The notes under the pieces: generated by a model
Databases searched by the model: none
What the model saw: only the letters and a program-made list of their open reading frames with translations
Told to the model about the DNA's origin: nothing
In this document: positions 4,953 through 29,689 of the stretch, piece after piece
Numbering within the stretch: the first letter of the stretch is position 1
Layout: each line of letters opens with the position of its first letter
Made by a program: the position numbers and the translations under genes
Source: an uncultured Bacteroidota bacterium
GTDB lineage: Bacteria; Bacteroidota; Bacteroidia; Bacteroidales; UBA12481
Direction: 5' to 3'
Length of the DNA stretch: 64,000 nt
NCBI GenBank assembly: GCA_903919065.1
Contig: CAIXHD010000426.1
Span: 1,580 to 65,579, forward strand

Positions 4953-6272
4953 ATGTCAGAAATACAAAATATTGATCTCGCCATAACAGGAGCACATATC
5001 CTGACAATCGACGAGACTATGAAAGAATACAAACAGGGTTCCATTTACATTGCCGGCAATCGGATTAAATGGATGGGGCCCGATACTGAACAACCTGAAA
5101 ATTTTGTTGTACGGGAGAAAATTGATGCATCAGGAAAAATAATCATGCCTGTATTTTTCAACGGGCACAACCATGCATCCATGTCCTTTCTCCGGGGGCT
5201 CGGTAATGATCTTAGTCTGGATAAATGGCTGAACGACTTCATCTGGCCAGCCGAGAAGGTCATGATCAATCCCGATACGGTATACCTTGGAACCATGCTG
5301 TCAGTCATTGAAATGATCCGTTCGGGTTCAGGCATTTTCTCCGACATGTATTTCTTTGAAGATCAGGTTGCCCGCGTTTGCGAGGAGACAGGTATGCGTG
5401 GAATTATCGGGGAGGCAATTTTCGATTTTCCATCACCCAGCCGTGCCACACCTCAGGAATCCATGCAATTTACACGGGAATTACATAGCCGGTTTCAGGG
5501 TCATAGCCTGATAAATGTATCTGTGGCAGTTCATGCTCCCTATACCTGCTCACCTGATCTGATCAGGCAAGCCGGTGAACTTGCAAAAGAGCTCGATATT
5601 TCAGCCAATATACATCTGGCCGAAACGACTACAGAAATTGATATGATAGCCGGTTTATATGGAAAATCACCGGTGCAGCATCTGTATGATCTGAACTTTT
5701 TATCTGAACGGACCGTTGCACACCATTCTGTATACTTATCTCCTGAAGACAGGCAGTTAATTAAAGATAGCGGAACCAGTGTAGTTACACTTCCAAACAG
5801 TAATATGAAACTGGGATCCGGTGCATGTGCTGTTGGAGAGCTGATCAAGCTTGGTATTAATGTAGCTTTGGGAACTGACGGACCGGCAAGCAACAATCAT
5901 CAGAGCCTGCTTAGGGAAATGCAGCAACTGGCTCGATTGGAAAGGGTTGTCAATTATGATCCAACCAGCATTTCAGCTCAAGAGCTGATACGTATTGCAA
6001 CAATCAACGGGGCCAGAGCGTATGGTCTCGACAAAGATCTCGGTTCTCTTGAATGCGGTAAAAAAGCTGATTTTCAGATTATCAATCCGGACCAGCCCCA
6101 TTGGTACCCCCGCTACGACCCATATAACAGCATAGCTTATGCCATGCAGTCAAATGATGTTGAATCGGTAATCATTGATGGTAAAATCGTAATGCGGAAC
6201 CGTGTATTGGTTAACATCGATGAGAAACGGATTTCAAAGGAATTAAAAAAGAAAGCAGGAATGCTGTTTTAA
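4953..6272 (+). CDS. Amidohydrolase-superfamily deaminase (MtaD/chlorohydrolase-like), copy 2 (tandem paralog)
   Basis: Collinear with copy 1 (NGHNHAS, HLAET, GTDGPASNN; RGLGNDLSLDKWL). The ATG at 4953, 1 nt after the copy-1 stop, gives an N-terminus (MSEIQNIDLAITGAHILT) parallel to copy 1. The track start at 4932 is in-frame upstream. Confidence 0.8.
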   Translation: MSEIQNIDLAITGAHILTIDETMKEYKQGSIYIAGNRIKWMGPDTEQPENFVVREKIDASGKIIMPVFFNGHNHASMSFLRGLGNDLSLDKWLNDFIWPAEKVMINPDTVYLGTMLSVIEMIRSGSGIFSDMYFFEDQVARVCEETGMRGIIGEAIFDFPSPSRATPQESMQFTRELHSRFQGHSLINVSVAVHAPYTCSPDLIRQAGELAKELDISANIHLAETTTEIDMIAGLYGKSPVQHLYDLNFLSERTVAHHSVYLSPEDRQLIKDSGTSVVTLPNSNMKLGSGACAVGELIKLGINVALGTDGPASNNHQSLLREMQQLARLERVVNYDPTSISAQELIRIATINGARAYGLDKDLGSLECGKKADFQIINPDQPHWYPRYDPYNSIAYAMQSNDVESVIIDGKIVMRNRVLVNIDEKRISKELKKKAGMLF

Positions 6273-6296
6273 ATTCACTGCAACTCATTTTAACCT

Positions 6297-7706
6297 TTAT
6301 CCGAGAAGATCTGAAACCTTGCTGATCTCAAGGAATGAGGCTCCTTTTCGGGCACCAAAGGATCCACCAACAACGACGATCCGGTCTGATGGTTCCAGTT
6401 CACCATGATCCAGCAGATAGGAAACTACTGAACCTTTAAAGACATCCGTGCTTTCCTTGGGATCCATATAGAATGGATAAATGCCATAGGAAAGGGCAAG
6501 CTCACGCATCACCCTCACAGAATAGCAAGCTGCAAAAACCGGATTCTTATTTCGGAAGGCGGCCATATAGCGTCCTGTGCGTCCGGTCAGGGTATCAATA
6601 ACCACAGCGCTGATATTCAGGTTTTTTGAGGCATGGTAAGCAGAGTTGGCCAAAAATGCAGCAATTTCATTGTCGATTGAACTGATAGCAGCGCTCTGCG
6701 GTTCACTTGAATTTTCAACTTCGAGAGCAATTCGGGTCATCATGCTCACAGCTTCTGTGGGATATTCGCCGTATGCGGTTTCTCCACTGAGCATCAGGGC
6801 ATCAGTTCCTGTATAAATGGCATTTGCAACATCAGAGATTTCTGCACGGGTGGGCCTGGGATGCTCAATCATCGTATGAAGCATCTGGGTTGCAATGATT
6901 ACCGGCTTTTTGCGACGAATACAGGCTTTGATCAGCATTCTCTGGATACCCGGAATCTTTTCACCGGCGATCTCTATACCAAGATCACCCCGGGCAACCA
7001 TAATGCCGTATACATGGTTCAATATTTCCTCGATATTATCGACGCCTTCCTGATTTTCAATTTTAGCAATAATCTTGATTTTCGATTGCTTCTCCTTCAG
7101 TATGGATTGAATTGCCAAAACGTCCTCTTTAGTCCGGACAAAAGAATGCGCAATAAAATCAACATCATTATCGATTGCAAACTTTATATAGTCCTTGTCC
7201 TTTTCATTAAGTGACGGCAGCTTCACTGATACTCCAGGAACATTGACACTCTTTCTTGATTTTATGAATCCGGAATTCATTACTCTGCATTGCAGAGATT
7301 TTTCAGCTTTTTCCTCAACGATCATTTCGATCTCTCCATCGTCGATAAGAATTCTGTTTCCGATTTCCAGATCATCAACAAAATTGATATATGTGACACA
7401 TATTCTTCCCGGAATACATGGCAGATCAGGATTTCCAATAAATTCAACCAATTCACCGGCAATCACTTCAATAGGATCCCTGGCAACCGTGGTTCTGATT
7501 TCCGGTCCTTTAGTATCAATCAGAATAGCTATCTCGTCTGAGACATTTCTAACCGAATCAACGACTTTTTTGGACCCCTCCAGATTTTGGTGAGCCGTAT
7601 TCAGGCGGACCACATTCATTCCAGCCTCAAAAAGTTCACGGATATGGTCCTGCGAACAACGCTGATCTGAGATTGTGGCAACTATTTTGGTATGTTTCTT
7701 TTGCAT
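6297..7706 (-). CDS. pyk: Pyruvate kinase
   Basis: 469 aa with TKIVATI, NVVRLNTAH, DTKGPEIRT and MVARGDLGIE motifs. Confidence 0.92.
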   Translation of the reverse strand: MQKKHTKIVATISDQRCSQDHIRELFEAGMNVVRLNTAHQNLEGSKKVVDSVRNVSDEIAILIDTKGPEIRTTVARDPIEVIAGELVEFIGNPDLPCIPGRICVTYINFVDDLEIGNRILIDDGEIEMIVEEKAEKSLQCRVMNSGFIKSRKSVNVPGVSVKLPSLNEKDKDYIKFAIDNDVDFIAHSFVRTKEDVLAIQSILKEKQSKIKIIAKIENQEGVDNIEEILNHVYGIMVARGDLGIEIAGEKIPGIQRMLIKACIRRKKPVIIATQMLHTMIEHPRPTRAEISDVANAIYTGTDALMLSGETAYGEYPTEAVSMMTRIALEVENSSEPQSAAISSIDNEIAAFLANSAYHASKNLNISAVVIDTLTGRTGRYMAAFRNKNPVFAACYSVRVMRELALSYGIYPFYMDPKESTDVFKGSVVSYLLDHGELEPSDRIVVVGGSFGARKGASFLEISKVSDLLG

Positions 7707-16863: not shown

Positions 16864-19800
16864 ATGAAAATATCCGGCATTCTGCTTTTTCTTCTTTCAG
16901 GATGCCTGATTCATGTAATGGGTCAGGAAACGGTTCGTTTCCATGCCGACCCGAATATATTTATACAGGATGCCCGTAATTTTTTCGGATTTCGACAACC
17001 GGAAGAATCACGGGCAGTTCTTTTAAGGCTCGAGACTGCCCAAAAGAAAGGCCAACTGGAGGAAAACCATTGGATTGACCTTTCCGGGAAAGCTAATGCA
17101 ATGATAAAATCAGATACCCAATCCGTTTCTGATTTATTTCTGTTGATCGATGCTTTTCTTGAGGCTGCCACTCACACACGGGAACGGGCAGGATACCTCA
17201 TCTGGTCTGCATTTGCAGATAAACTTCTCATTCAGAATCGGAAGGATATTACCCAGGTCAAGAAATTCATGAAGTTCACACTGGACTATTCCAGAAATGG
17301 AATTCTATACAAATCAAGCGCTTTTGAATGGGGAGTAAAACCAGATTTAAATATTTACGGTATTGATTCCACATTTTATGTGATTGTAAATGCGGCTGAC
17401 CTTGTTGCCAGGGGAAGTGGCGACAGTACAGTAATTTTTTCAACCCGGGGAAGATATTATCCGGAAACAAACCATTTTTTTGGTGAAGGAGGCAAGGTTT
17501 CCTGGGAAAAGGTCAAAATTCCTTCGAGCCAGGTTTGTGTGAACCTTAACAAATACACTCTCGATTTAAAAAAATCATTTTACGAGATAGATTCTGTTAA
17601 TCTGATAGACCGGCGATATTTTAAGGAGCCGCTGATTGGCAGGATTGAAAACAAAATTCTACCGGGTGTTTCTGCAGAGACAGCCGGTTATCCCAAATTC
17701 ACTTCATACGATCATCGGAACCGAATTAAAAACCTTTACCCCGGTATGGATTACGAAGGTGGTTTCGCACTTTATGGATCAAAAGTGTTCGGTATTGGGC
17801 CGGCTTCAGCAAAAAGCATCCTGACAGTGTTCAGAAATCAGAAACCCATTATAAGGCTTGCCTCTACCTATTTTTCATTCCTGCCTGACCAGGCCCGCGG
17901 GATCAACTCAGAAGTCAGCATATATCTCGAAACTGATTCAATTTATCATCCAGGGTTGCTCTTCCAATATAATGGCAAGCAGAAAGAAATTTCATTTATT
18001 CGTGATGGACAAGGACTCTCCCCTTCCCGATTCATTGATTCGTATCATGAATTTGACCTGAATGTTGACTGGATTAGATGGACCATCGGAAGTAATTTCA
18101 TAAGCATGGCGGGCTTGCCCGGAAGTCTTGAAAACAAAGCTTCATTTGAATCAGCCGACTTTTTCAATATCGACCGGTACAATGAAATCCTGATAGTTGA
18201 TAAAACCCATCCGGTAGCTGCAGTAAAGAAATGTTCGGAATATTACTATTCACGGACGTTTACTCTCGAGGACTTATCAAAGTTTATGGTAAAACCGCAG
18301 CATTTGGTTGAAGAAATGCTGCTTCGTCTCTCCTTTCTTGGATTTGTCAGATATAATTCTGAAACCAAAATAGTGGATGTTCAGGAGCGTGCGTTCGACT
18401 TCCTGAAAAAGAACGCCGGGCAGCAGGATTACGATGTTATCCGATTTGAATCCTTGTTGCAGCAACCAGAAGTCAATGCCATTCTCAATCTGACCGATAA
18501 TCATCTGAAAGTAATTGGGTTAAAATCACTTGAGCTTAGCCAGACGCGGCAAGTAACCATTTATCCAACCAATGCTTCAATAGAAATTCTTAAAGGCAGA
18601 GACCTGCTTTTTGATGGAGAGATTCAGGGAGGGCTGATACGTTTTTATGGCAAGAAATTCCACTTTAACTATGATGATTTCTCTATAAGACTTGACGAGG
18701 TTGGAAAACTTAAGATCCAGGTTTATGAGAAGCCAAAAAATAAAAACCAGACCCCGGTGCTGGCAGATGTCACCTCGGTTATTGAATACACCAAAGGAAC
18801 CCTGAAAATTGATGAACCGAGCAACAAGTCAGGCCTGCGGGCAGATAAATATCCCGAATACCCCATACTGCAGACCGACACCAATGCCTATGTTTACTAT
18901 AACCAAAAGGAAATTCTCAATGGTGTATACCCACGCGAAACTTTCAATTTCAGTATATCCCCATTCACCTTGAGAGGACTGAATTTATACACATTCAGTG
19001 ACTCCCTGAACTTTCCCGGTCGACTTACCACAGCAGGTATTTTTCCCCCTTTAGAACTTGCCTTGAGGCACCAGAGTGATCATTCGCTCGGCTTCGAGAC
19101 ACTAAAAACTCCGGAAGAAGGATATCCGGTATATAATGGTAAAGGTCGCTTTTATAATAGTATTGCCATGAGCAAGGCGGGGCTGAGAGGTTCAGGAAGG
19201 CTTGAATATCTTAATTCCGCAGTTGAGTCAGATGATATACTCTTTCTTCCTGACCAGGTTAATACTTTGGCCAGCATTGCCGTAGCCCAAGACTCTTCTG
19301 ATACCGGCAATCCTGAAACAAGAGGTGAAAAAATGGCCATTAAATGGTATCCTGGCGGCGATAAACTTGTAGCTCAGAGCACCAAAGGTCCGCTTAACAT
19401 GTATGGCAAGGGAAAATTCGATGGCGTACTGAATCTTGAGCCCAACGGATTGATAGGAAAAGGAACAGTTTATTTTGATGGCTATTCCATTACTTCCAAT
19501 GAAATCAAGTTTAATGAGAATACCTATCAGGCTCCGAACAGCATTCTTCGGATCTTCAGGGATTCTGCAGAGACAAAAGCCGACAAGACTCCTTATCCTT
19601 ATTCCGGAACCCTGATGCAGGCCAGTCAGTTTAATGGTATGATTGATGTTGCTAACAAGAAAGCGCATTTTGAACCGGCTGGAACTCAATCCAGGATTGA
19701 GTTTACCCAGAATCGCTTTGAGGGAAAACCAGCCCGTTTTGACTGGGATATGGACAAAAAACAGCTGGTAATGGAGGATCTTACGCTAAAAATGGCTCGA

Positions 19801-21312
19801 AAACCTTCAGATTCGTTGAATTTCAAATCCGGGCAAGCCGAATTTTCACTTCAGGATCAATTAATTAGTGCACATAGTGTTGATTTTATCGATGTTGCTG
19901 ACGTGCGCATCTTTCCAGCTGACAGAAACATGGTGATCAGGACAGACGCAAAGATTGATTCTCTCATGCAGGCGACCATTGTTAGTAAGGATTCTTCATT
20001 GATTCACCGCATTAATTCAGCAACGGTTACCATCGTCGACAACAAAAATTATCATGCAAGCGGTAATTATCAGTATCGTGATGTTGCCGGACGAGAGTTT
20101 GCCATCCGTTTTTCCGATATCCAACCGGATAAAAACGGAATATCAACTGGCAAAGGGGATATCCCGCAGGAAAGTGAATTCAGTCTGAGTCCAGCATTCA
20201 AATATTACGGCAATGTTGAATGGAATAATAAGGAACCCCTGTTGCTCTTCAACGGGCAAACGCAACTCAGCCATTCCTGTCCGAATATTACTCTTCAATG
20301 GATTAAATTCAATAGCAGGATTTATCCCGATTCTGTGGCTATTCCAATCGATTCTATTACGACCAACGATAAGGACGAACGATTGTTTAAAGGCTTTTTC
20401 CTATCGAATCAGCCTGTTGAGTTATATTCCACTTTTGTGGGTCCGCATACCCGGTACAGCGACCAGCCACTGATTTCTGCCAAAGGCTGGTTATGGTATG
20501 ATGAACCGAAGGGGCAATACAAACTTGCGTCAGACGAAAAGAGGAAAGATCCTGAGGCAGATGGCCCCATTCTATTCATGGATGCCAATACATGCAAAAA
20601 CGAAGCAAAAGGACAGCTGACTTTTGGAGTCGACCTTGGACAGGTAAAATTAAGCGGTGCCGGAAAATTCGTTCATGATCTCAAAGCCGATAGTATCAGG
20701 GGAACTGTTCTTATGACCTCTGATTTCTTTATTGATGAGAAGCTTTTGAATTTTATGGCCAGTGCCATTAATAATGCATCAGGTCTTGAAGCGGTGAATT
20801 ACAGTAAACCCGAATTCAGGAGTTCCTTCAAGGATTTACTTGGAAGGGCCACAGGGGAGGAATTGCTCAAGCAGATCAGCCTGACCGGAAAGTGGAAAAA
20901 AATCCCGGATCAGCTTCTTCATACCATTGTCTTTAGCGATGTAAATTTCAAATGGAACCCGGAAACAGGATCCTATCAATCGGAAGGAAAAATCGGGATT
21001 GGAAATATTATGGGTGAACCGATTAATAAGAAAATTAAGGGTTTCATGGAGATTCTTCATCGCCGTGGTGGTGACGTTTGGACGATGTACCTGGAGCTTG
21101 ACAGGCAGAATTATTTCTTTCTCACTTATTCACGCGGCGTAATGCAATGTGTTGCTGGGCCAGGTCAGGAGAAGTTCAATACGATCATACGCAGTACCAA
21201 AGATGCGAACAGGACCCAAAAGATACTGCCAGGCGAACCGGAATACCAATATTATATTGGAACCTATGCCCAGGTTTCAGAGTTCTTGCGAAAGTTCAGT
21301 GTGGACAGATAA
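16864..21312 (+). CDS. Very large (1482 aa) exported protein of unknown function
   Basis: Single uninterrupted ORF starting 2 nt after the tpiA stop. N-terminal signal MKISGILLFLLSGC (possible lipobox L-S-G-C) or cleavage after VMG. I recognise no catalytic motif. Confidence 0.7.
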   Translation: MKISGILLFLLSGCLIHVMGQETVRFHADPNIFIQDARNFFGFRQPEESRAVLLRLETAQKKGQLEENHWIDLSGKANAMIKSDTQSVSDLFLLIDAFLEAATHTRERAGYLIWSAFADKLLIQNRKDITQVKKFMKFTLDYSRNGILYKSSAFEWGVKPDLNIYGIDSTFYVIVNAADLVARGSGDSTVIFSTRGRYYPETNHFFGEGGKVSWEKVKIPSSQVCVNLNKYTLDLKKSFYEIDSVNLIDRRYFKEPLIGRIENKILPGVSAETAGYPKFTSYDHRNRIKNLYPGMDYEGGFALYGSKVFGIGPASAKSILTVFRNQKPIIRLASTYFSFLPDQARGINSEVSIYLETDSIYHPGLLFQYNGKQKEISFIRDGQGLSPSRFIDSYHEFDLNVDWIRWTIGSNFISMAGLPGSLENKASFESADFFNIDRYNEILIVDKTHPVAAVKKCSEYYYSRTFTLEDLSKFMVKPQHLVEEMLLRLSFLGFVRYNSETKIVDVQERAFDFLKKNAGQQDYDVIRFESLLQQPEVNAILNLTDNHLKVIGLKSLELSQTRQVTIYPTNASIEILKGRDLLFDGEIQGGLIRFYGKKFHFNYDDFSIRLDEVGKLKIQVYEKPKNKNQTPVLADVTSVIEYTKGTLKIDEPSNKSGLRADKYPEYPILQTDTNAYVYYNQKEILNGVYPRETFNFSISPFTLRGLNLYTFSDSLNFPGRLTTAGIFPPLELALRHQSDHSLGFETLKTPEEGYPVYNGKGRFYNSIAMSKAGLRGSGRLEYLNSAVESDDILFLPDQVNTLASIAVAQDSSDTGNPETRGEKMAIKWYPGGDKLVAQSTKGPLNMYGKGKFDGVLNLEPNGLIGKGTVYFDGYSITSNEIKFNENTYQAPNSILRIFRDSAETKADKTPYPYSGTLMQASQFNGMIDVANKKAHFEPAGTQSRIEFTQNRFEGKPARFDWDMDKKQLVMEDLTLKMARKPSDSLNFKSGQAEFSLQDQLISAHSVDFIDVADVRIFPADRNMVIRTDAKIDSLMQATIVSKDSSLIHRINSATVTIVDNKNYHASGNYQYRDVAGREFAIRFSDIQPDKNGISTGKGDIPQESEFSLSPAFKYYGNVEWNNKEPLLLFNGQTQLSHSCPNITLQWIKFNSRIYPDSVAIPIDSITTNDKDERLFKGFFLSNQPVELYSTFVGPHTRYSDQPLISAKGWLWYDEPKGQYKLASDEKRKDPEADGPILFMDANTCKNEAKGQLTFGVDLGQVKLSGAGKFVHDLKADSIRGTVLMTSDFFIDEKLLNFMASAINNASGLEAVNYSKPEFRSSFKDLLGRATGEELLKQISLTGKWKKIPDQLLHTIVFSDVNFKWNPETGSYQSEGKIGIGNIMGEPINKKIKGFMEILHRRGGDVWTMYLELDRQNYFFLTYSRGVMQCVAGPGQEKFNTIIRSTKDANRTQKILPGEPEYQYYIGTYAQVSEFLRKFSVDR

Positions 21313-21878: not shown

Positions 21879-22382
21879 ATGAAAAAACTTATTACCCTGA
21901 TTATGACGATCATCTTGGTCGCCGGTATCCAAACTATCAGCGCTCAGGAAGTGAAAGAAGTAAAAAAAATCTACAATCCTGAAGCTAATGCCAAGGAAGA
22001 TATCAGCAAAGCAGTTCAAAAAGCAAAGGAAGAAGGAAAGCATGTCATGGTTCAGATTGGAGGAAACTGGTGCTCATGGTGCCTGCTCTTCCACAAATAC
22101 ATCAATGAGGATCTGGAAATCAAAAAGATGATTGATGACAATTTTGTTTTTACGCTTCTCAATTACAGCCAGGAGGTTAAAAACGCCGAATTGATGGCAA
22201 AATACAACAACCCTGGCCGGATGGGATATCCGGTATTCCTCATTCTCAATGGCGAAGGACAACTTATCCACACTCAGGATTCCGGACTTCTTGAGGAGGG
22301 CAAAGGGTATAATAAAACCAAAGTGATGACCTTCCTGAAAAATTGGACTAAGGCAGCAGTTGATCCAAAGAATATCAGATAA
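21879..22382 (+). CDS. Exported thioredoxin-fold protein (CxxC)
   Basis: Signal peptide MKKLITLIMTIILVAGIQTISA and GGNWCSWCLLF, a redox CxxC in thioredoxin-like context. Confidence 0.7.
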   Translation: MKKLITLIMTIILVAGIQTISAQEVKEVKKIYNPEANAKEDISKAVQKAKEEGKHVMVQIGGNWCSWCLLFHKYINEDLEIKKMIDDNFVFTLLNYSQEVKNAELMAKYNNPGRMGYPVFLILNGEGQLIHTQDSGLLEEGKGYNKTKVMTFLKNWTKAAVDPKNIR

Positions 22383-22384
22383 AA

Positions 22385-23095
22385 ATGCATCTTTTTTACG
22401 CTCCGGAACTCTCAGACCAGAAGACATTCACATTGAATGCAGATGAATCCCATCATGCGGTGAGGGTTCTGAGATTAAGTCCAGGCATGGAAATAATTCT
22501 GGTTAACGGTCGGGGTGGCTGGTATCACACGAAGATCACCCACCCCGATCCGAAAGCCTGTACCGTTGAAATTACAAAGGTTCAATCCGATATTGGAAAA
22601 CCTGGTCACGATCTTCGTATTGCCATCGCCCCTACCAAGCAAATAGACCGGTATGAGTGGTTTCTTGAAAAGGCTACCGAGATCGGGATCAGTGAAGTGA
22701 TACCCTTAATCTGCGAACATTCAGAAAGAAAGGAGGTCAAGACCGATCGTCAGATGCGCATTGTCATTGCAGCAATGAAACAGTCACTTAAGGCATTTCA
22801 TCCAGTTATCCGGGAACCTCTGTCTTTCCGGAAGTTTATGAAAGAAGACATCTCCGGTACTAAAACCATTGCCCATTGTCAAACTGGGGAAAAATTGTGG
22901 TTAAATGAGATAATAAAACCCGCTGAACCTATAACCATATTGATTGGACCAGAGGGGGATTTCTCTGGATCGGAGATCACGGAGGCAATAGAAAATGGCT
23001 ATATTCCTGTTACTCTAGGAACAAGCCGACTGAGGACAGAGACTGCCGGAGTGGTTGCCTGCCATACCGTTTCATGGTTAAGCCGGGAGTTTTAA
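22385..23095 (+). CDS. rsmE: 16S rRNA (uracil1498-N3)-methyltransferase RsmE
   Basis: 236 aa. N-terminal PUA-like region with HHAVRVLRL, and a C-terminal SPOUT region with LIGPEGDFS and SRLRTETAG. Confidence 0.85.
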   Translation: MHLFYAPELSDQKTFTLNADESHHAVRVLRLSPGMEIILVNGRGGWYHTKITHPDPKACTVEITKVQSDIGKPGHDLRIAIAPTKQIDRYEWFLEKATEIGISEVIPLICEHSERKEVKTDRQMRIVIAAMKQSLKAFHPVIREPLSFRKFMKEDISGTKTIAHCQTGEKLWLNEIIKPAEPITILIGPEGDFSGSEITEAIENGYIPVTLGTSRLRTETAGVVACHTVSWLSREF

Positions 23096-23140
23096 GGAAA
23101 TATTCCGCAAAAAAATATTTCATATCTTTTTGTTATCTTC

Positions 23141-23617
23141 ATGGCTATGTTAGGACGCACGAGAAACAGGCGACAACTTGATATTTTCGAGGTTCCGATT
23201 GAAAGGTTTATTAATCGGGATCACGAATTTGCTATCGGTGCTGTTAACATCGATTGGGAATCACTCGAAGAACATTTCAAGCCCTTTTATGCTCCTAAAG
23301 GGCGTCCGTCGGTTCCACCCCGAAAAATAATCGGCATGATTCTTTTGAAAGAAAGATTCAGTCTGAGTGATGAGAAAGTTCTGAAAATATGGCCGGAAAA
23401 TCCATACTGGCAATATTTCTGCGGTGAAGTTCATTTTCAGACGAATAAACCATTCAGTGTTGGCGAGCTCACAAGATTCCGGCGAAGGATTGGTGCTGAA
23501 GGCCAGGAAATGATAAAAAACATCTCTATCAAACAATTCGGAAAACCGGATGGGAAAACCTATGATTCATACTCTGACCGGAAAAAGAAGAACTTCTGGA
23601 AGAAAATTATCGGATGA
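23141..23617 (+). mobile_element. IS5/InsH-type transposase, N-terminal domain-only ORF (DDE domain missing)
   Basis: 158 aa. FKPFYAPKGRPSVPPRKIIGMILLKERFSLSDEKVLKIWPENPYWQYFCG aligns by eye with the E. coli InsH N-terminal region ([33 protein letters not shown]). The ORF stops where the DDE catalytic domain should begin, and the next gene starts 33 nt later. No inverted repeats were found. Confidence 0.6.
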
Positions 23618-23650
23618 TAAGAAGATGAGATGATTAGTTGATGTGGTGAT

Positions 23651-25171
23651 GTGATGATTGAAAAAATGACACGGTTCAATCTTTTATTTCTTTTCGTTTT
23701 GATCCCGTTAGCGGGTATAAATCAAGAACCTATGCAATTAATAAAAAAAGACAGGCAGCCAGCGGTAGCCGGATCTTTTTATCCGTCGGATGCTATCGAA
23801 TTAAAGAAGACTATCGCCGGTTTCATGAATGCTGCAAAGCCTCAGCACGCAAAAGGGCTTGTCAGGGCAATTCTCGTTCCACACGCCGGTTACGTATATT
23901 CCGGAGGTGTTGCCGCATCAGGATACAATCAGCTGAATCCCGACCAGGAGTATAAAAGGGTCTTTATTCTCGCCTCATCCCATAGGGTGAGTTTTGGCAA
24001 AGCATCGGTTTATACTCAAGGTGATTATATAACTCCATTGGGCAGGATTCCGGTCGATACAGATATCGCTAAAGATTTAATACTCGATTCCAGATCATTC
24101 ACTGATTACCCGGAGGCTCACATTTCTGAACACAGCATTGAAGTGCATCTGCCTTTTCTTCAACTACACCTAAAATATCCATTCAAAATTGTCCCCATTG
24201 TTCTGGGGACGCAGGTACCGGCGGTATGCGAAGAAATTGCCAAAGCGCTCAAGCCCTATTTCACAAGCGAAAACCTCTTTGTTATCAGTTCTGATTTTTC
24301 ACATTATCCAGCCTACGCTGATGCTGTAAAAGTTGATGAATTAACGGCCAATGCTTTCTGTGCAAACTCTCCAGCTGAATTTCTGAAGGTCATCAGGAAC
24401 AACGATAACCTCCGGATATCAGAACTGGCTACCAGCATGTGCGCCTGGCCTTCAGGACTTACCCTGCTTTACCTGACTCAGGGAAACAGTGATCTGAGCT
24501 TTAACAAAATCGATTATAAGAACTCCGGCGATATCAAACCTTATGGCGATAAGGGCAGTGTAGTAGGATATCATGCTATCAGTGTAACAGAACAAAAAAA
24601 ATCGGAGTTTGATCTTTCAGAAGCCGATAAGCATGAACTGTTACGAATTGCCCGTACCACCGTTGATTCCTATATAAATTCAGGAATCACGCCTGCCCTG
24701 AATCCCGAAGGATACAGTGAAAACCTTAAGGCTAAAGCCGGAGCATTCGTAACATTAAAAATTGAGGATAACCTCCGGGGATGCATTGGAACCTTTGAGC
24801 CAACTGTTCCCCTGTATAAGGTCGTTCAGCAGATGGCAATTGCATCTTCCACCCAGGACAGCCGCTTTCAGCCGTTAAAAAGCAAGGAACTGTCGACGGT
24901 GCATATTGAGATATCAGTTTTAACCCCAATGCGAAAAATAAAAAATATCAGCGAGATACAGTTGGGCAAACATGGCATTTACATTAAGAAAGGATTCCAG
25001 GGCGGAACATTTTTGCCTCAGGTTGCCACCGAAACCGGTTGGTCGCTCGATGACTTTCTGGGCCATTGTTCGCGGGATAAAGCTGGTCTTGGCTGGACGG
25101 GTTGGAAGGATGCTGACATCTATATTTATGAGGCTCTGATCTTTGAGGAAGATAGCGTTAAGAAAAAATGA
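23651..25171 (+). CDS. AmmeMemoRadiSam system protein B (Memo-like) fused to protein A (AMMECR1-like), with N-terminal signal peptide
   Basis: 506 aa. Memo hallmarks AGSFYP and VPHAGYVYSG in the N-terminal half. AMMECR1 hallmarks GAFVTLK..LRGCIGTF and GGTFLPQVA in the C-terminal half. Hydrophobic leader MTRFNLLFLFVLIPLAG (alternative starts ATG 23654 and 23666). Confidence 0.85.
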   Translation: MMIEKMTRFNLLFLFVLIPLAGINQEPMQLIKKDRQPAVAGSFYPSDAIELKKTIAGFMNAAKPQHAKGLVRAILVPHAGYVYSGGVAASGYNQLNPDQEYKRVFILASSHRVSFGKASVYTQGDYITPLGRIPVDTDIAKDLILDSRSFTDYPEAHISEHSIEVHLPFLQLHLKYPFKIVPIVLGTQVPAVCEEIAKALKPYFTSENLFVISSDFSHYPAYADAVKVDELTANAFCANSPAEFLKVIRNNDNLRISELATSMCAWPSGLTLLYLTQGNSDLSFNKIDYKNSGDIKPYGDKGSVVGYHAISVTEQKKSEFDLSEADKHELLRIARTTVDSYINSGITPALNPEGYSENLKAKAGAFVTLKIEDNLRGCIGTFEPTVPLYKVVQQMAIASSTQDSRFQPLKSKELSTVHIEISVLTPMRKIKNISEIQLGKHGIYIKKGFQGGTFLPQVATETGWSLDDFLGHCSRDKAGLGWTGWKDADIYIYEALIFEEDSVKKK

Positions 25172-27516
25172 ACGCACCCTATTTACTGATACCCATAGGA
25201 CTGATATTGTTGATCTTGTATGGGATAAGCTATCTATTCAACCGATTGGAAATTCTCAGCAAATCGGTACACCGGAAAATCTGGAACTACTCGTTACTTG
25301 TTACGTTTCTGACGGCTGGTTGTCTGGGAATTCTCATGGCAATACAAATCAATTACAAGCTGGAGGTCCCCTGGACGGAAAAAGTATTGAAATGGCATGT
25401 CAACTTCGGCATCGGCATGTCCATGGTTGGTATGTTTCATTTATTATGGCACTGGCGCTACTATCTGCCAGTAAAATCGCCCAGGCGCAAATCGAATAGC
25501 AGCCAAATTTCATTCCTGAGCAGACTAGGTTCTGGTTCATGGCCCTTTCTGACCGGGTTCATCAGCATTGCTGTTCAAACTTTGATGATTCGCGAGTTAC
25601 TTGGCTTATTCCAGGGTAATGAACTTATGCTCTCCCTCATAATGTTCTTATGGCTTCTTATTACCGGCTTAGGGGCAATAGCAGGAAATCGCGGCAAATC
25701 AGGCATTCAAGAAGAATACCAATTAAATCAAAAGAAGTCATTTATACTGGTTCTTACCCAGTTCCTTCTGCCTCTTGTTCTCCTTCCACTGATGTATTAT
25801 TGTAAAAGTATTTTTTTTGCACCGGGTATAGAGGCGGGACCGATAGCCTTTTCCGGATTTTGCCTCTTAGTCCTGACACCATTCTGTTTTCTGACAGGAT
25901 TTTCTATCACATTTACAACCAGGTTATTTGCTTCATCAGGATTAAATATTCGGAGAGCCTATGCCTGGGAGAGCATCGGGGGAATTTCATCAGGAATTCT
26001 CTGTTCGATTGCCATTCTTACCGGAACGTTAACGCCCCCTGCCAGCCGGTGGTCACAAAAACTCTTTCATCCTAACGATGAGATCATTGCCTCCCGATCT
26101 GGTCCTGCCGGTCGACTGACCATTACGCAAAACGGCGATCAAATTAATATTTTCGAAAATGGCCTTCTGACTCAGTCCTCTGGAAATACCCTGATCATTG
26201 AAGAAATGACACACTTCGCAATGATTCAGCATCCTGATCCCCGGAATATTTTGGTCATCGGAGGATTACTTTCCGGTATCAATCAGGAGTTGTTGAAATA
26301 TCCTTTAACCCGGCTGGATCTGGCTGAACCCGACAACCAGATTTTCAGGTTGGCGAAAAGGCTTCACCTCCTTCCCCCCCCTGCTCCTTCGACACGGTTT
26401 ATCGATAAAAATCTCAATTCCTGGATTAATCATCCTGACATTCAATATGATATTATCCTGGTTATGCTTCCCGGACCTCAAAATCTATCTCTGAACCGAT
26501 TTTATACTGCTGAATTTTTTACTCAGATAAAGAATATCCTAACTCCAGACGGATTTGTCTCGGTGATGCTTCCGGGAACTGCCAATTACCTGTCAAAGGA
26601 GGCTATTGCTGCTATCAGCCCGGTGATAAATTCCATCAGGTCATCATTCCGCTTTGCTCAAATATTTCCCGGGGAGAACAATTACCTCATAGCAGGAAAC
26701 ACAGATCTGAAAACAGATATCTTATCAGAACTAAAATTAAAGAAAATCAATACCTTATATCTTTCAAAGGGTTATTTTGATGAGAGTCTTTTTCAGACCC
26801 GACTTAGTCAGGCAAACCTCCTGATGAAACCCTGGATGGCTAAAAACACCATACTCAAACCCGTTGCCTATTTTGCGCAGATTAACTGGTGGCTCGGACA
26901 ATTCCCGGGAAGGCTCTCGTGGCTTCTTGCCGGGATTCTTATAATTCTGATTTTCTTTAGCTTTTTTAAGGGAGGTACCTCTGGAAGTGCTATGTTCATT
27001 TTGGGAGCCAGCGCCTCAGGGATTGAGATCATACTTCTGTTAATGGTGCAGATGATTTCAGGATCGCTATTCTTATTTACCGGTCTCTTTGCCGCGATAT
27101 TTATGGCTGGGCTGGCGTTTGGCAGCCTAAAAAACTTTTCCGGCTATACAGGAAAAGTAGCAGGATCAGGAACAATAATCCTTATTTCATTCAGTATGAT
27201 CACAGCATTGCTGGCCGGAATGGTTTTCTGGATGACATTATCAGGACAATATATATTGGTTAAAACCCTGGTTATTGCATTAATATCATTTATGTCTGCT
27301 TTCTTAACAGGATTGTATTTCACTTATCTGACAAGAATAAATTTCAGCACAAACGATCAGGGTAATATATATATTTACGATATGCTGGGCGCAGCCTTCG
27401 GAGCCTTGGCCTACCCGATGGTAATAATTCCGATGTTAGGAATTTTACCCGCTTTAGGGATTATTTCCGGTTCAGGCCTATTAATTTTGATAATTCAAAA
27501 GGCATTAAGGAAATGA
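25168..27516 (+). CDS. Polytopic membrane protein with central spermidine-synthase-like (class I MTase fold) domain
   Basis: 782 aa. The ATG overlaps the upstream TGA (ATGA). There are many hydrophobic spans on both sides of a core that aligns with SpeE: ILVIGGLLSG (26248-26277), YDIILVMLPGP (26446-26478) and FYTAEFFTQIKNILTPDGFV. Confidence 0.7.
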   Translation: MNAPYLLIPIGLILLILYGISYLFNRLEILSKSVHRKIWNYSLLVTFLTAGCLGILMAIQINYKLEVPWTEKVLKWHVNFGIGMSMVGMFHLLWHWRYYLPVKSPRRKSNSSQISFLSRLGSGSWPFLTGFISIAVQTLMIRELLGLFQGNELMLSLIMFLWLLITGLGAIAGNRGKSGIQEEYQLNQKKSFILVLTQFLLPLVLLPLMYYCKSIFFAPGIEAGPIAFSGFCLLVLTPFCFLTGFSITFTTRLFASSGLNIRRAYAWESIGGISSGILCSIAILTGTLTPPASRWSQKLFHPNDEIIASRSGPAGRLTITQNGDQINIFENGLLTQSSGNTLIIEEMTHFAMIQHPDPRNILVIGGLLSGINQELLKYPLTRLDLAEPDNQIFRLAKRLHLLPPPAPSTRFIDKNLNSWINHPDIQYDIILVMLPGPQNLSLNRFYTAEFFTQIKNILTPDGFVSVMLPGTANYLSKEAIAAISPVINSIRSSFRFAQIFPGENNYLIAGNTDLKTDILSELKLKKINTLYLSKGYFDESLFQTRLSQANLLMKPWMAKNTILKPVAYFAQINWWLGQFPGRLSWLLAGILIILIFFSFFKGGTSGSAMFILGASASGIEIILLLMVQMISGSLFLFTGLFAAIFMAGLAFGSLKNFSGYTGKVAGSGTIILISFSMITALLAGMVFWMTLSGQYILVKTLVIALISFMSAFLTGLYFTYLTRINFSTNDQGNIYIYDMLGAAFGALAYPMVIIPMLGILPALGIISGSGLLILIIQKALRK

Positions 27517-27531
27517 TTTCCGGAAGAAGAA

Positions 27532-28659
27532 ATGAATAAGAGGGAATTTTTAAAGAATGTTGCTACGACAGGGATTCCCCTCTGTTTTTATGGTATTAAT
27601 GGAATTGGAGCTAAAACTTTTATCAATATGACCAGTCAGGATAACCTTAAGCCCGGTGAGCGCGAAGCCAGACACTACATTGAGACTCCCAGGGGAATTA
27701 AATGCCTGATTTGCCCGAATGAATGTACTCTCAAGGAGGGTGAACTCAGCATTTGTCATAATCGTATTGCACGTGATGGCAAGTTATATACAATGGCATA
27801 TGGGAACCCATGTGCTGTGAATATTGATCCCGTTGAGAAGAAGCCCCTGCTCCACTTTTTCCCTGGCTCCAAATGCTTTAGTATTGCTACAGCCGGATGT
27901 AATTTTGCTTGTCTGAATTGTCAGAACTGGGAAATCAGCCAGACTAGCCCAAGCAAAACCCGTAATTTCAATGCTAATCCGGAATCAGTTGTCAACCAAG
28001 CGATAAGAGAAGAATGCCACTCTATAGCTTATACCTATTCCGAGCCCGTTACTTTTTTTGAATACATGCTGGATACGGCCACTTTTGCGAGAAGCCGCAG
28101 AATAAAAAATGTATTGGTATCAAACGGGTATATTAATCAGGAACCGTTATTGGAACTTTGCAAAGTTATTGATGCGGCAAATATTGATCTGAAGACTTTC
28201 GATCCGGTTACGCATCTCAAGCTCACGGCCGGCAATTTGAAACCGGTACTGGAAACATTAAAAACGCTAAAAGATCAAGGGGTATGGCTTGAAATCACCA
28301 ATCTTTTAATACCCGATTGGACGGATAATTTTGATCAGATCACGAAGATGTGTGATTGGCTCGCTAAAGAGGGATTTCAGGATTACCCATTGCATTTCAG
28401 TCGTTTCCAGCCTCAGCACAAGCTCACCCGGTTGCCATCCACTCCACTGCAGTCCCTTACCAAGGCAAAAGATATAGCAATGAAGGCCGGCCTGAAATAT
28501 GTATATATAGGCAATGTCCCCGGCATAGGAGGCGAAGATACTTATTGTGCCAATTGTAAGGTTTTATTAGTCAAGAGGAATGGGTTTGAGGTTGAGCAGA
28601 ATCTTGTCAATAGTGGGCGCTGTCCGAAATGCCAGTCGACTATAGCCGGAAGATGGTGA
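27532..28659 (+). CDS. AmmeMemoRadiSam system radical SAM enzyme
   Basis: 375 aa. CxxxCxxC motif as GCNFACLNC, upstream Cys cluster CLICPNEC...SICHNR, C-terminal CANC...CPKC, and N-terminal Tat-like MNKREFLKNVATTG. Confidence 0.85.
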   Translation: MNKREFLKNVATTGIPLCFYGINGIGAKTFINMTSQDNLKPGEREARHYIETPRGIKCLICPNECTLKEGELSICHNRIARDGKLYTMAYGNPCAVNIDPVEKKPLLHFFPGSKCFSIATAGCNFACLNCQNWEISQTSPSKTRNFNANPESVVNQAIREECHSIAYTYSEPVTFFEYMLDTATFARSRRIKNVLVSNGYINQEPLLELCKVIDAANIDLKTFDPVTHLKLTAGNLKPVLETLKTLKDQGVWLEITNLLIPDWTDNFDQITKMCDWLAKEGFQDYPLHFSRFQPQHKLTRLPSTPLQSLTKAKDIAMKAGLKYVYIGNVPGIGGEDTYCANCKVLLVKRNGFEVEQNLVNSGRCPKCQSTIAGRW

Positions 28660-28755
28660 TATATATCAATTTATTATTGATCTACATCAGTTTTTCAATG
28701 ATAAATGATATTGTTAGCTATGGCAATATCTACATTTATATATAGGGGAAAATTC

Positions 28756-28763
28756 TACTTTTG
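28756..28763 (+). promoter_or_regulatory. Bacteroidota-type -7 promoter element TAnnTTTG (TACTTTTG) for the nuo operon
   Basis: Exact motif 21 nt upstream of ATG 28785. It overlaps the TTG used by the ORF track. Confidence 0.5.
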
Positions 28764-28784
28764 GCTCATAATTTTCTAAACACT

Positions 28785-29138
28785 ATGAGCAGCGAATCCC
28801 TGGTTCTGTTCTTTATTGTCGGTGTGGTTTTGGTTGGAGGAGCAGTTTTGTTCTCCCATTTTGTAGCACCGAGTTTTAGTAAGTCACCCGCGAAGTTCGA
28901 ACCCTACGAATGCGGCATCCCGGCCCAAGGTAATGCCTGGATACAGTTTAATGTCGGGTATTATCTGTTTGCCATTGTCTATTTGATTTTCGACGTGGAA
29001 ACGGTATTTGTATTTCCCTGGGGTGTAGTTATGAAAGAAATCGGCTTAAGGGCTTTTATCGAGATCGTAATTTTCTTCCTGATTCTCGGTTTAGGTCTAT
29101 TATATGCCTGGAAAAAAGACGCATTGAAATGGGTGTAA
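28785..29138 (+). CDS. nuoA: NADH-quinone oxidoreductase subunit A
   Basis: Three-TM protein with the FEPYECGIP motif. The start was set to ATG 28785. Confidence 0.9.
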
Positions 29139-29689
29139 AAATCAAATCCATGAAAAATGAAGATTTCCGGGATAATGAATCCCTGGAAATCTTCAAACAG
29201 TCTGGTGGCAATATTTTGTTGACTACCATTGATGACCTCATTAACTGGGGCCGGTCGAATTCGGTTTGGCCGCTTACCTTTGCAACAAGTTGCTGTGGTA
29301 TTGAAATGATGGCTGCGGGTGCTCCCAGGCATGATTTCGCCCGTTTTGGCGTAGAAGTATACCGAGCTTCACCTCGTCAGGCTGATGTTATTGTTGTTGC
29401 AGGTACGGTGGTACATAAGATGGCTCCGGTACTTAAACGGCTTTATGATCAGATGGCCGAGCCCAAATTTGTTATCGCTATGGGTGCCTGTGCATGTTCA
29501 GGAGGCCCCTTCTATTATAATACCTATTCCGTGGTAAGAGGTGTTGACCATGTCATTCCGGTTGATGTATATATCCCGGGCTGCCCTCCCCGTCCGGAAG
29601 CCTTATTATATGGCATCATGCAGCTGCAGCGCAAAATGAGAACTGAAACCATTGCGAGTCCGCGCGACCCCATGGAGAACTTTATTTAA
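29129..29689 (+). CDS. nuoB: NADH-quinone oxidoreductase subunit B
   Basis: [17 protein letters not shown] and PGCPPRPE (N2 cluster ligands). Confidence 0.93.

Follow-up and report, generated by a model that had tools for sequence, protein, structure and literature searches.

A stretch of 64,000 nucleotides from an uncultured Bacteroidota bacterium (contig CAIXHD010000426.1 of assembly GCA_903919065.1; the whole stretch is hereafter called the window) carries three adjacent genes that constitute a variant of the widespread AmmeMemoRadiSam system. These genes code for a fusion of the Memo and AMMECR1 proteins (proteins B and A of the system), a polytopic membrane protein, and a radical S-adenosylmethionine (SAM) enzyme, abbreviated rSAM. 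An initial annotation of this DNA had given the positions of the three open reading frames (ORFs), of an ATGA overlap between the fusion stop codon and the membrane gene start codon (25168-25171), and of a 15-nucleotide gap between the membrane and rSAM genes, and all of these are accurate. Judged by its sequence, the locus resembles a three-gene operon. A scan of positions 22300-29300 for promoters and terminators returned counts at or under the shuffled expectation. In public records the parts of the variant are annotated only piecemeal, under names such as “spermidine synthase,” “pyruvate formate lyase activating enzyme,” and “AmmeMemoRadiSam system protein B/A,” and a relative of the membrane protein with 31% identity bears the NCBI name “fused MFS/spermidine synthase” (MFS, major facilitator superfamily). 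The features of the locus are as follows.

23666..25171, plus strand: gene for the Memo-AMMECR1 fusion, which joins AmmeMemoRadiSam proteins B and A in a single chain (TIGR04336, TIGR04335)
23666..23731, plus strand: putative Sec-type leader of the fusion (MTRFNLLFLFVLIPLAGINQEP), hydrophobic in all 63 assessable orthologs
23753..24583, plus strand: Memo domain, residues 35-311 of the 506-amino-acid ORF (PF01875, 187.9 bits)
24635..25144, plus strand: AMMECR1 domain, residues 329-498, with the motifs LRGCIG and GGTFLPQVA (PF01871, 171.3 bits)
25168..27516, plus strand: polytopic membrane protein gene, 782 amino acids, 15 predicted transmembrane helices
25168..25464, plus strand: N-terminal three-helix module with conserved His35, His77, His91, and His95, a candidate b-type cytochrome (DUF4405-like)
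25534..26034, plus strand: predicted transmembrane helices 4-8, with conserved Q137, R142-E143, and G150-N151-E152, a motif common to other membrane SpeE-like proteins
26035..26913, plus strand: SpeE-like soluble domain, predicted to be periplasmic, catalytic residues replaced (PF01564)
26914..27507, plus strand: transmembrane helices 9-15, predicted from hydropathy and AlphaFold2
27532..28659, plus strand: AmmeMemoRadiSam rSAM gene, 375 amino acids (TIGR04337)
27532..27627, plus strand: Tat-like leader of the rSAM enzyme (MNKREFLKNVATTGIPLCFYGINGIGAKTFIN), motif [KR]R-x-F-[LIVM] in 63 of 67 orthologs

Hidden Markov model searches put every domain call of the initial annotation above its curated cut-off. 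Hallmarks of protein B and protein A had been recognized within one ORF, and this ORF indeed scores 228.1 bits against TIGR04336 (cut-off 26) over residues 35-311 and 164.1 bits against TIGR04335 (cut-off 99) over residues 329-498. The Memo motifs PHAGY, SSH, EHSIE, SDFSH, and MCAWP align with the pocket of human MEMO1, and the AMMECR1 domain can be aligned to structures 1zq7 and 1vaj. Likewise, the proposed radical SAM partner reaches 361.3 bits against TIGR04337 (cut-off 220) and carries the cysteine motifs CLICPNEC and CNFACLNC (CX3CX2C) together with a C-terminal CxxC...CxxC. The locus thus presents the four features by which an AmmeMemoRadiSam system is recognized, namely matches to the models for protein A, protein B, and the rSAM enzyme, encoded together. 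One detail of the fusion was revised. The longest ORF is that of 506 amino acids reported originally (23651-25171, opening with GTG 23651), and it does hold both domains. However, orthologs begin at the equivalent of ATG 23666 (MTRFNLLF...), and this codon is therefore the likely start, while GTG 23651 is probably not a start codon.

For the membrane protein, family-averaged hydropathy and an AlphaFold2 model (predicted local distance difference test score 83, predicted template-modelling score 0.84) concur on 15 transmembrane helices, arranged as three, then five, then a soluble domain (about residues 290-582), then seven. The numbers of lysines plus arginines in successive loops alternate on both sides of the soluble domain, which by the positive-inside rule would lie outside the cytoplasm. 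This domain, inserted between helices 8 and 9 and predicted to face the periplasm, contains the spermidine-synthase-like core noted at the outset, with residues 345-466 matching PF01564 at 43.7 bits (cut-off 22.9). A Foldseek search with the full model returned SpeE matches only (1uir at E 3.5e-10, template-modelling score 0.64 normalised to the target), and the SpeE fold is retained in full, down to its N-terminal beta domain. The membrane partner falls under no NCBIfam model. Pfam found no MFS domain in the window protein; a distant relative (P0290) has PF07690.

In SpeE, the aspartates of the D-x-x-D-P motif are catalytic and the Asp of GGGDG reads the aminopropyl group. Where 1uir and 1iy9 have DLTDP/DSTEP, the membrane protein has MLPGP, and where they have GGGEG/GGGDG, it has GGLLSG. 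Both aminopropyltransferase catalytic aspartates and the GGGDG Asp are replaced throughout the family, in which LPGP is conserved. Residue E387, the ribose-binding acidic residue, and two of the glycines are kept, and the domain may still bind an adenosyl compound. Scores against the spermidine-synthase equivalogs lie far under the cut-offs (TIGR00417, 43.1 versus 249.55; PRK00811, 58.6 versus 260; PRK03612, 76.7 versus 472), and for this reason the membrane protein is, by the measure of these models, not a spermidine synthase.

To examine conservation, 80 loci were fetched from species-representative genomes by alignment of homologs of the 782-amino-acid protein; all are from Bacteroidota or from metagenome-assembled genomes labelled as close to that phylum. 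The membrane gene occurs in all 80, generally beside the fusion gene, the rSAM gene, or both. Gene order, read by local tblastn, is fusion, membrane protein, rSAM down to approximately 30% identity of the membrane protein, and the complete cassette is present in 47 of the 57 loci assessable on both sides (three loci with overlapping genes were counted as having the fusion). The membrane gene proposed as an additional component is accordingly retained in related genomes. When all flanking ORFs were clustered, the fusion, membrane, and rSAM genes were the only conserved neighbours, separated by gaps with medians of 18 and 64 nucleotides and by many 4-nucleotide overlaps. Memo and AMMECR1 form a single ORF in 67 of 67 loci holding both domains. 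The 15-helix protein is an obligate neighbour.

Both soluble partners carry N-terminal extensions that resemble export signals, as had been proposed for each. In the fusion, the frame is open upstream of the Memo core in 63 of 63 assessable orthologs and encodes a short basic N-terminus followed by a strongly hydrophobic stretch, with a median best 12-residue Kyte-Doolittle value of 2.67. At least 27 of these orthologs have a lipobox-like Cys after the leader, in the form ...SC(N/K)SQ.... This Cys is absent from the window's own clade, which suggests a plain Sec signal there. Met28 of the 506-amino-acid ORF (23732-23734) follows the leader; it is kept in the close clade and in roughly one in two distant orthologs. 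This internal Met is a frequent start of the fusion in public gene calls, which then have 479 amino acids.

The leader of the rSAM enzyme is in frame and open in 67 orthologs. Approximately 54 residues before the first Cys motif, 63 of these have [KR]-R-x-F-[LIVM] (58 with K-R, five with R-R). Its core is rich in G, A, L, and C and is less hydrophobic than that of the fusion leader (median 1.60 versus 2.67; Mann-Whitney p = 2e-22); a weaker hydrophobic core is a textbook difference between signals for twin-arginine translocation (Tat) and those for Sec. Within the close clade, leader length is kept in 11 of 12 loci, and substitutions at the three codon positions number 880/684/1191, the pattern of coding DNA, which argues that the leader is a real coding sequence. 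The leader that had been described as Tat-like is a conserved, signal-like segment with a weak core, but the window enzyme begins M-N-K-R-E-F-L-K, with K-R where the Tat consensus S/T-R-R-x-F-L-K has R-R. The Bacteroidota leaders have K-R in 58 of the 67 orthologs at a site where other phyla have R-R. In 62 of 67 orthologs, a Cys lies no more than 22 residues beyond the motif; a lipoprotein reading was considered and dropped, as the preceding residue is often T, L, F, or Y, and no lipobox is claimed. Met33 (27628-27630) follows the leader and is conserved in the close clade. Again, public callers often start at the internal Met, yielding 343 or 344 amino acids. Because public calls so often begin both genes after the leader, these export signals are easily overlooked.

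With E. coli query sequences, a search for tatC and tatA gave no match in the 64-kb window, and its sole match among the loci was in L042. There, tatC (6206-7024; PF00902, 205 bits) ends 3 nucleotides upstream of the Memo-AMMECR1 fusion gene, which indicates that the clade has Tat machinery. Small nuclease-like ORFs lie between the fusion and membrane genes of L042, and no rSAM gene is nearby.

A search with the rSAM enzyme covered 1.84 billion cluster representatives, and the 150 best were grouped by N-terminus. Eighty-six of these are leaderless. Canonical R-R leaders occur in 21, for example MSTTRRRFLAAAAG and EDRRRFLKVCGL, although one of these cases (P0213, a triple fusion) is probably a chance match to the motif. 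K-R or R-K leaders are seen in two more and long N-terminal extensions in 17, and the remaining 24 comprise 14 fragments and 10 sequences with other extensions of 33-110 amino acids. Among the domains found in the long extensions are DsbD_2, FMN_bind, and NapH-like Fer4_5. P0146 and P0150 each start with one helix, after which come FMN_bind and the rSAM domain without an intervening helix. As FMN_bind serves as a flavinylated carrier outside the cytosol (PMC11334425), the rSAM domain of these two proteins should be outside too.

Partners of the same kind recur around these relatives. P0127 joins DsbD_2 to rSAM, and a SpeE-like membrane homolog comes after it. In L085, a DsbD_2-rSAM fusion overlaps a gene for a 753-amino-acid protein homologous to residues 107-765 of the window membrane protein, comprising the transmembrane core and SpeE-like domain without the N-terminal module. 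In L086, a membrane protein with DsbD_2 and Fer4_5 precedes P0146. The locus of P0306 has the order ApbE, rSAM, Memo-AMMECR1 fusion, and a 1281-amino-acid SpeE-like membrane protein fused to FMN_bind and Fer4_5. Finally, in L090, from a metagenome-assembled genome of Thermodesulfobacteriota, the neighbours of a SpeE-like membrane gene are genes for a CxxCH protein, for a fusion that bears a Sec-like leader, and for an rSAM enzyme that starts ...MTRRHFLS. The homology of both the L085 and L090 proteins to the window membrane protein begins in the region of helices 4-8. The CxxCH protein of L090 (12056-12403, minus strand) has 115 amino acids, a signal-like N-terminus, and a CATCH haem-c motif, and its gene lies just upstream of the fusion gene.

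A metagenome scan for the L090-type family gave 47 loci. The rSAM gene adjoins the membrane gene in 29 of 32 assessable loci, 13 loci have two rSAM paralogs, R-R is present in 40 of 43 rSAM ORFs, and the fusion is found in nine of 20 loci. Four loci (L100, L104, L109, and L111) have, at about 9.3-12.3 kb of their sequence, two tandem TIGR04337-like paralogs with R-R leaders beside a SpeE-like membrane gene and no Memo-AMMECR1 fusion in reach.

Other arrangements of these domains were also seen. All three of rSAM, AMMECR1, and Memo are joined, in either domain order, in single polypeptides of 900-1100 amino acids (P0175, P0178, P0185, P0188, P0205, P0212, P0213, P0228, P0229, and P0256) or about 800-835 amino acids (P0128 and P0234), and P0128 starts with a hydrophobic leader (MKNNKFIKILIFTFL...). 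In P0126 and P0132, the rSAM domain follows a single N-terminal helix and is fused to a beta-propeller (Reg_prop/PorZ-like) or to CBM_11, which are typical extracellular modules.

The electron-transfer domains of these relatives draw attention to the N-terminal module of the window membrane protein. Four of its histidines, all in helices 2 and 3, are conserved: His77 and His91 without exception, His35 and His95 almost always. The best Pfam match of the isolated segment is DUF4405 (PF14358) at E 0.013, with 16.4 bits against a gathering cut-off of 26.7, and DUF4405 matches five of 22 family members at E <= 1 (best E 0.0019). Haem b binding by DUF4405 proteins has been demonstrated, and a role in transmembrane electron transfer is proposed for them; those described have six helices and four central His (PMC11334425). 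A homolog search with the module alone recovered four fragments of the same family only, and Foldseek with residues 1-300 gave no significant match (E >= 0.59), several of the weak matches being MFS proteins. The notion of a haem-b cytochrome is therefore weakly suggested, a lead rather than a demonstration.

Three independent lines point to a location of the system outside the cytoplasm: the leaders, the charge topology of the SpeE-like domain, and the fusions and neighbours of other lineages. We consider it somewhat probable that the locus encodes an extracytoplasmic AmmeMemoRadiSam variant in which the membrane protein links the system to resources of the membrane or cytoplasm. The fusion would be exported by Sec, with lipid anchoring in many relatives, and the rSAM enzyme would be exported by Tat in a folded state with its Fe-S clusters. 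With the SpeE-like domain in the same compartment, the catalytic parts would all come together at the periplasmic surface of the inner membrane. The idea of a four-component, envelope-directed variant thus gains support, and the arrangement recurs outside Bacteroidota. A polyamine product, one of the envelope substrates that had been entertained, is unlikely because the SpeE-like domain lacks the aminopropyltransferase catalytic aspartates.

More speculatively, the membrane protein may be a service module that enables radical SAM chemistry on the outer face. Its His-rich, DUF4405-like helices could carry electrons across the membrane and reduce the rSAM cluster, a job that DsbD_2, NapH-like/FMN_bind/ApbE, or cytochrome-c modules might do in other lineages. 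Indeed, four or five different redox modules, transmembrane or periplasmic, are associated with the same partners in different lineages, which argues for a recurring need to supply an extracytoplasmic rSAM enzyme with electrons. The SpeE-like domain would no longer make polyamines and would instead bind an adenosyl compound, either SAM for delivery, possibly via the 12-helix core, or the by-product 5′-deoxyadenosine. A role in cofactor handling or docking is favoured by the loss of catalytic residues together with the tightest pairing across phyla, which is that of the rSAM enzyme with the SpeE-like membrane protein. SAM might reach the periplasm bound to the exported enzyme, be delivered through the transmembrane core, or be used catalytically. 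Memo-AMMECR1 would then act with the rSAM enzyme on an envelope or periplasmic substrate. The account given in the initial annotation included neither the cytochrome-like module nor the parallel electron-transfer modules of other lineages, and with them the main question becomes less which substrate is involved than how a radical SAM enzyme can be serviced outside the cytoplasm. In its strongest form, this reasoning describes a self-sufficient, cross-phylum class of periplasmic radical SAM system, with a Tat-exported rSAM enzyme, a cytochrome-like electron module, and a dead SpeE-like domain that presents or removes the adenosyl cofactor. That full picture is possible, but we hold it tentatively and with some doubt.

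Several observations weigh against an extracytoplasmic system. The topology is a prediction from hydropathy and the positive-inside rule, the window rSAM leader has K-R rather than R-R, and the E. coli queries found no Tat genes in the 64-kb window. The conserved M28 of the fusion and M33 of the rSAM enzyme, both common public starts, may give rise to leaderless cytoplasmic isoforms or dual starts. The DUF4405 score is below the Pfam cut-off, the structural search with residues 1-300 was without a significant match, and a transport role for the transmembrane core is conjecture. We know of no periplasmic source of SAM. In NosR-like fusions (FMN_bind-Fer4_5-rSAM), which have several helices, the rSAM domain could be cytoplasmic, and the rSAM gene at the P0306 locus is called at 344 amino acids, the size of a leaderless enzyme (protein call only). 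The cassette also has exceptions. Five loci (L014, L018, L042, L049, and L057) have the fusion and membrane genes with no rSAM gene nearby, L061 and L067 have the membrane and rSAM genes without the fusion, and L081 has the exported partners with no SpeE-like gene nearby. The five loci form a subclade with no rSAM gene within 3.3-10 kb of downstream sequence; it may have been lost or may lie at another site in these genomes.

One alternative, close to the substrate idea of the initial annotation and in our judgement unlikely though deserving of serious attention, is that the membrane protein is a substrate-handling enzyme or carrier. An envelope molecule, for example a lipid-linked or isoprenoid one, would be bound by its transmembrane core, the SpeE-like domain would transfer an alkyl group from SAM or a related donor, and the rSAM and Memo-AMMECR1 proteins would modify the same molecule. 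Retention of the complete SpeE fold with its beta domain fits this proposal, and the glycine loop, the ribose-binding E387, and the polar residues N443, R444, N473, Y474, E503, and D538, which are invariant and specific to the family, suggest a conserved active or binding site. It would also accommodate the five loci in which membrane protein and fusion stay adjacent without a nearby rSAM gene, and the related SpeE-like membrane proteins found outside AmmeMemoRadiSam contexts (L091 and L093). However, replacement of the catalytic aspartates and the GGGDG Asp throughout the family speaks against such catalysis, the repeated attachment of different transmembrane redox modules in other lineages is left unexplained, and the tightest cross-phylum pairing is with the rSAM gene rather than with a biosynthetic gene set.

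It is less probable still, and we think distinctly so, that the system works on the cytoplasmic face, with leaders that serve as membrane anchors or are skipped by starting at M28 and M33, and with a membrane protein that scaffolds a cytoplasmic complex. Every radical SAM enzyme known so far depends on SAM from the cytoplasm and on low-potential reductants, and both the K-R leader and the conserved Met after each leader, at which public calls of 343/344 and 479 amino acids begin, agree with this possibility. Yet the leaders are conserved coding sequence and are laid out like signals, in that a basic N-terminus precedes a hydrophobic core and many fusion orthologs also have a lipobox; positive charges at the N-terminus of such segments put the following domain outside, as the charge bias also does for the SpeE-like domain; and some relatives have canonical R-R leaders or an FMN_bind fusion after a single helix. 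Chance adjacency, with an unrelated membrane “spermidine synthase” gene lying within an AmmeMemoRadiSam locus, could account for family members that stand alone (the membrane gene is by itself in L015-L017, and L091 and L093 are further cases). We regard this as extremely improbable given that the order is kept in 47 of 57 loci to approximately 30% identity while other neighbours vary and gaps are short or overlapping, and given that unrelated lineages show the same pairing, in some cases as fused genes.

The surroundings of the operon were also assessed. An ORF at 23141-23617 (plus strand, 158 amino acids, DUF772) corresponds to the N-terminal third of an IS5 transposase. It had been taken for a transposase remnant, but its frame is intact and it occupies the same position in 12 related loci with 70-95% identity, conserved as much as its neighbours. 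It therefore looks domesticated rather than decaying. The rsmE and nuo genes are present at the flanks as described, but are common only to the closest relatives; as this adjacency is limited to the 12-13 closest loci, it reflects general synteny and was set aside as a functional clue. Farther upstream, at 16864-21312 (plus strand), a 1482-amino-acid ORF with a signal-like N-terminus is found; it is also upstream in nine close relatives (47-72% identity).

To our knowledge, few prokaryotic gene triads whose substrate is not known are as widespread as that of Memo, AMMECR1, and the radical SAM enzyme, and MEMO1 and AMMECR1 are human disease-linked genes. The variant adds to this triad an obligate fourth partner, a proposed cellular address at the periplasmic face of the inner membrane, and putative swappable electron-supply modules. 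The address and the modules would narrow the search for the substrate, and the variant opens a fresh route into the study of the system. As radical SAM enzymes require SAM and low-potential reductants, they are commonly regarded as confined to the cytoplasm. If correct, the existence of conserved Tat leaders and FMN_bind fusions on a whole rSAM branch would change that view. Searches of the accessible literature, a scope that excludes Burroughs et al. 2019 (J Biol Chem), in which Memo gene contexts were reportedly analysed, turned up no account of this variant and none of a periplasmic radical SAM enzyme.

Several known systems offer points of comparison. Like canonical AmmeMemoRadiSam loci, the window has its genes together, scores above the cut-offs of TIGR04335, TIGR04336, and TIGR04337, and keeps the Memo, LRGCIG, and rSAM Cys motifs. 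Unlike them, it has A and B fused and a 782-amino-acid membrane protein inserted between the fusion and the rSAM enzyme. Its leaders also fall outside the models, with position 1 of TIGR04336 at residue 35 and position 11 of TIGR04337 at residue 55, which indicates that typical family members have no leaders. A canonical locus, L088, differs in exactly these respects: its A, B, and rSAM proteins are separate and leaderless, and it lacks the membrane gene. With SpeE (PF01564), including membrane-bound forms such as PRK03612, the membrane protein shares a soluble fold attached to a polytopic membrane region. It departs from SpeE in the replaced D-x-x-D-P and GGGDG aspartates, the far lower equivalog scores, the predicted periplasmic placement of the domain between helices 8 and 9, and the extra His-rich three-helix module.

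The rSAM enzyme has the glycyl-radical-enzyme activases of the PflA family as its next-best NCBIfam matches (PflA, 57 bits; YjjW activase, 60 bits), but these scores are far under the cut-offs, and the enzyme has extra N- and C-terminal Cys clusters and a Tat-like leader. Iron-sulfur proteins exported by Tat include Rieske proteins and the Fe-S subunits of periplasmic reductases. The rSAM enzyme resembles such proteins in its basic motif, in the weakly hydrophobic G/A-rich segment, and in being a protein that would fold around Fe-S clusters before export. It differs in that the cargo is a radical SAM enzyme and in the prevalence of K-R among its Bacteroidota orthologs. We found no link to radical SAM enzymes in the literature on flavinylation-linked electron-transfer modules. 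The modules described there, ApbE, FMN_bind, NapH-like Fer4_5, DsbD_2, and DUF4405 (PMC11334425), are fused or adjacent to close homologs of the rSAM enzyme and membrane protein elsewhere. In contrast, the window locus lacks FMN_bind, ApbE, Fer4_5, and DsbD_2, and its weakly DUF4405-like module has three helices rather than six.

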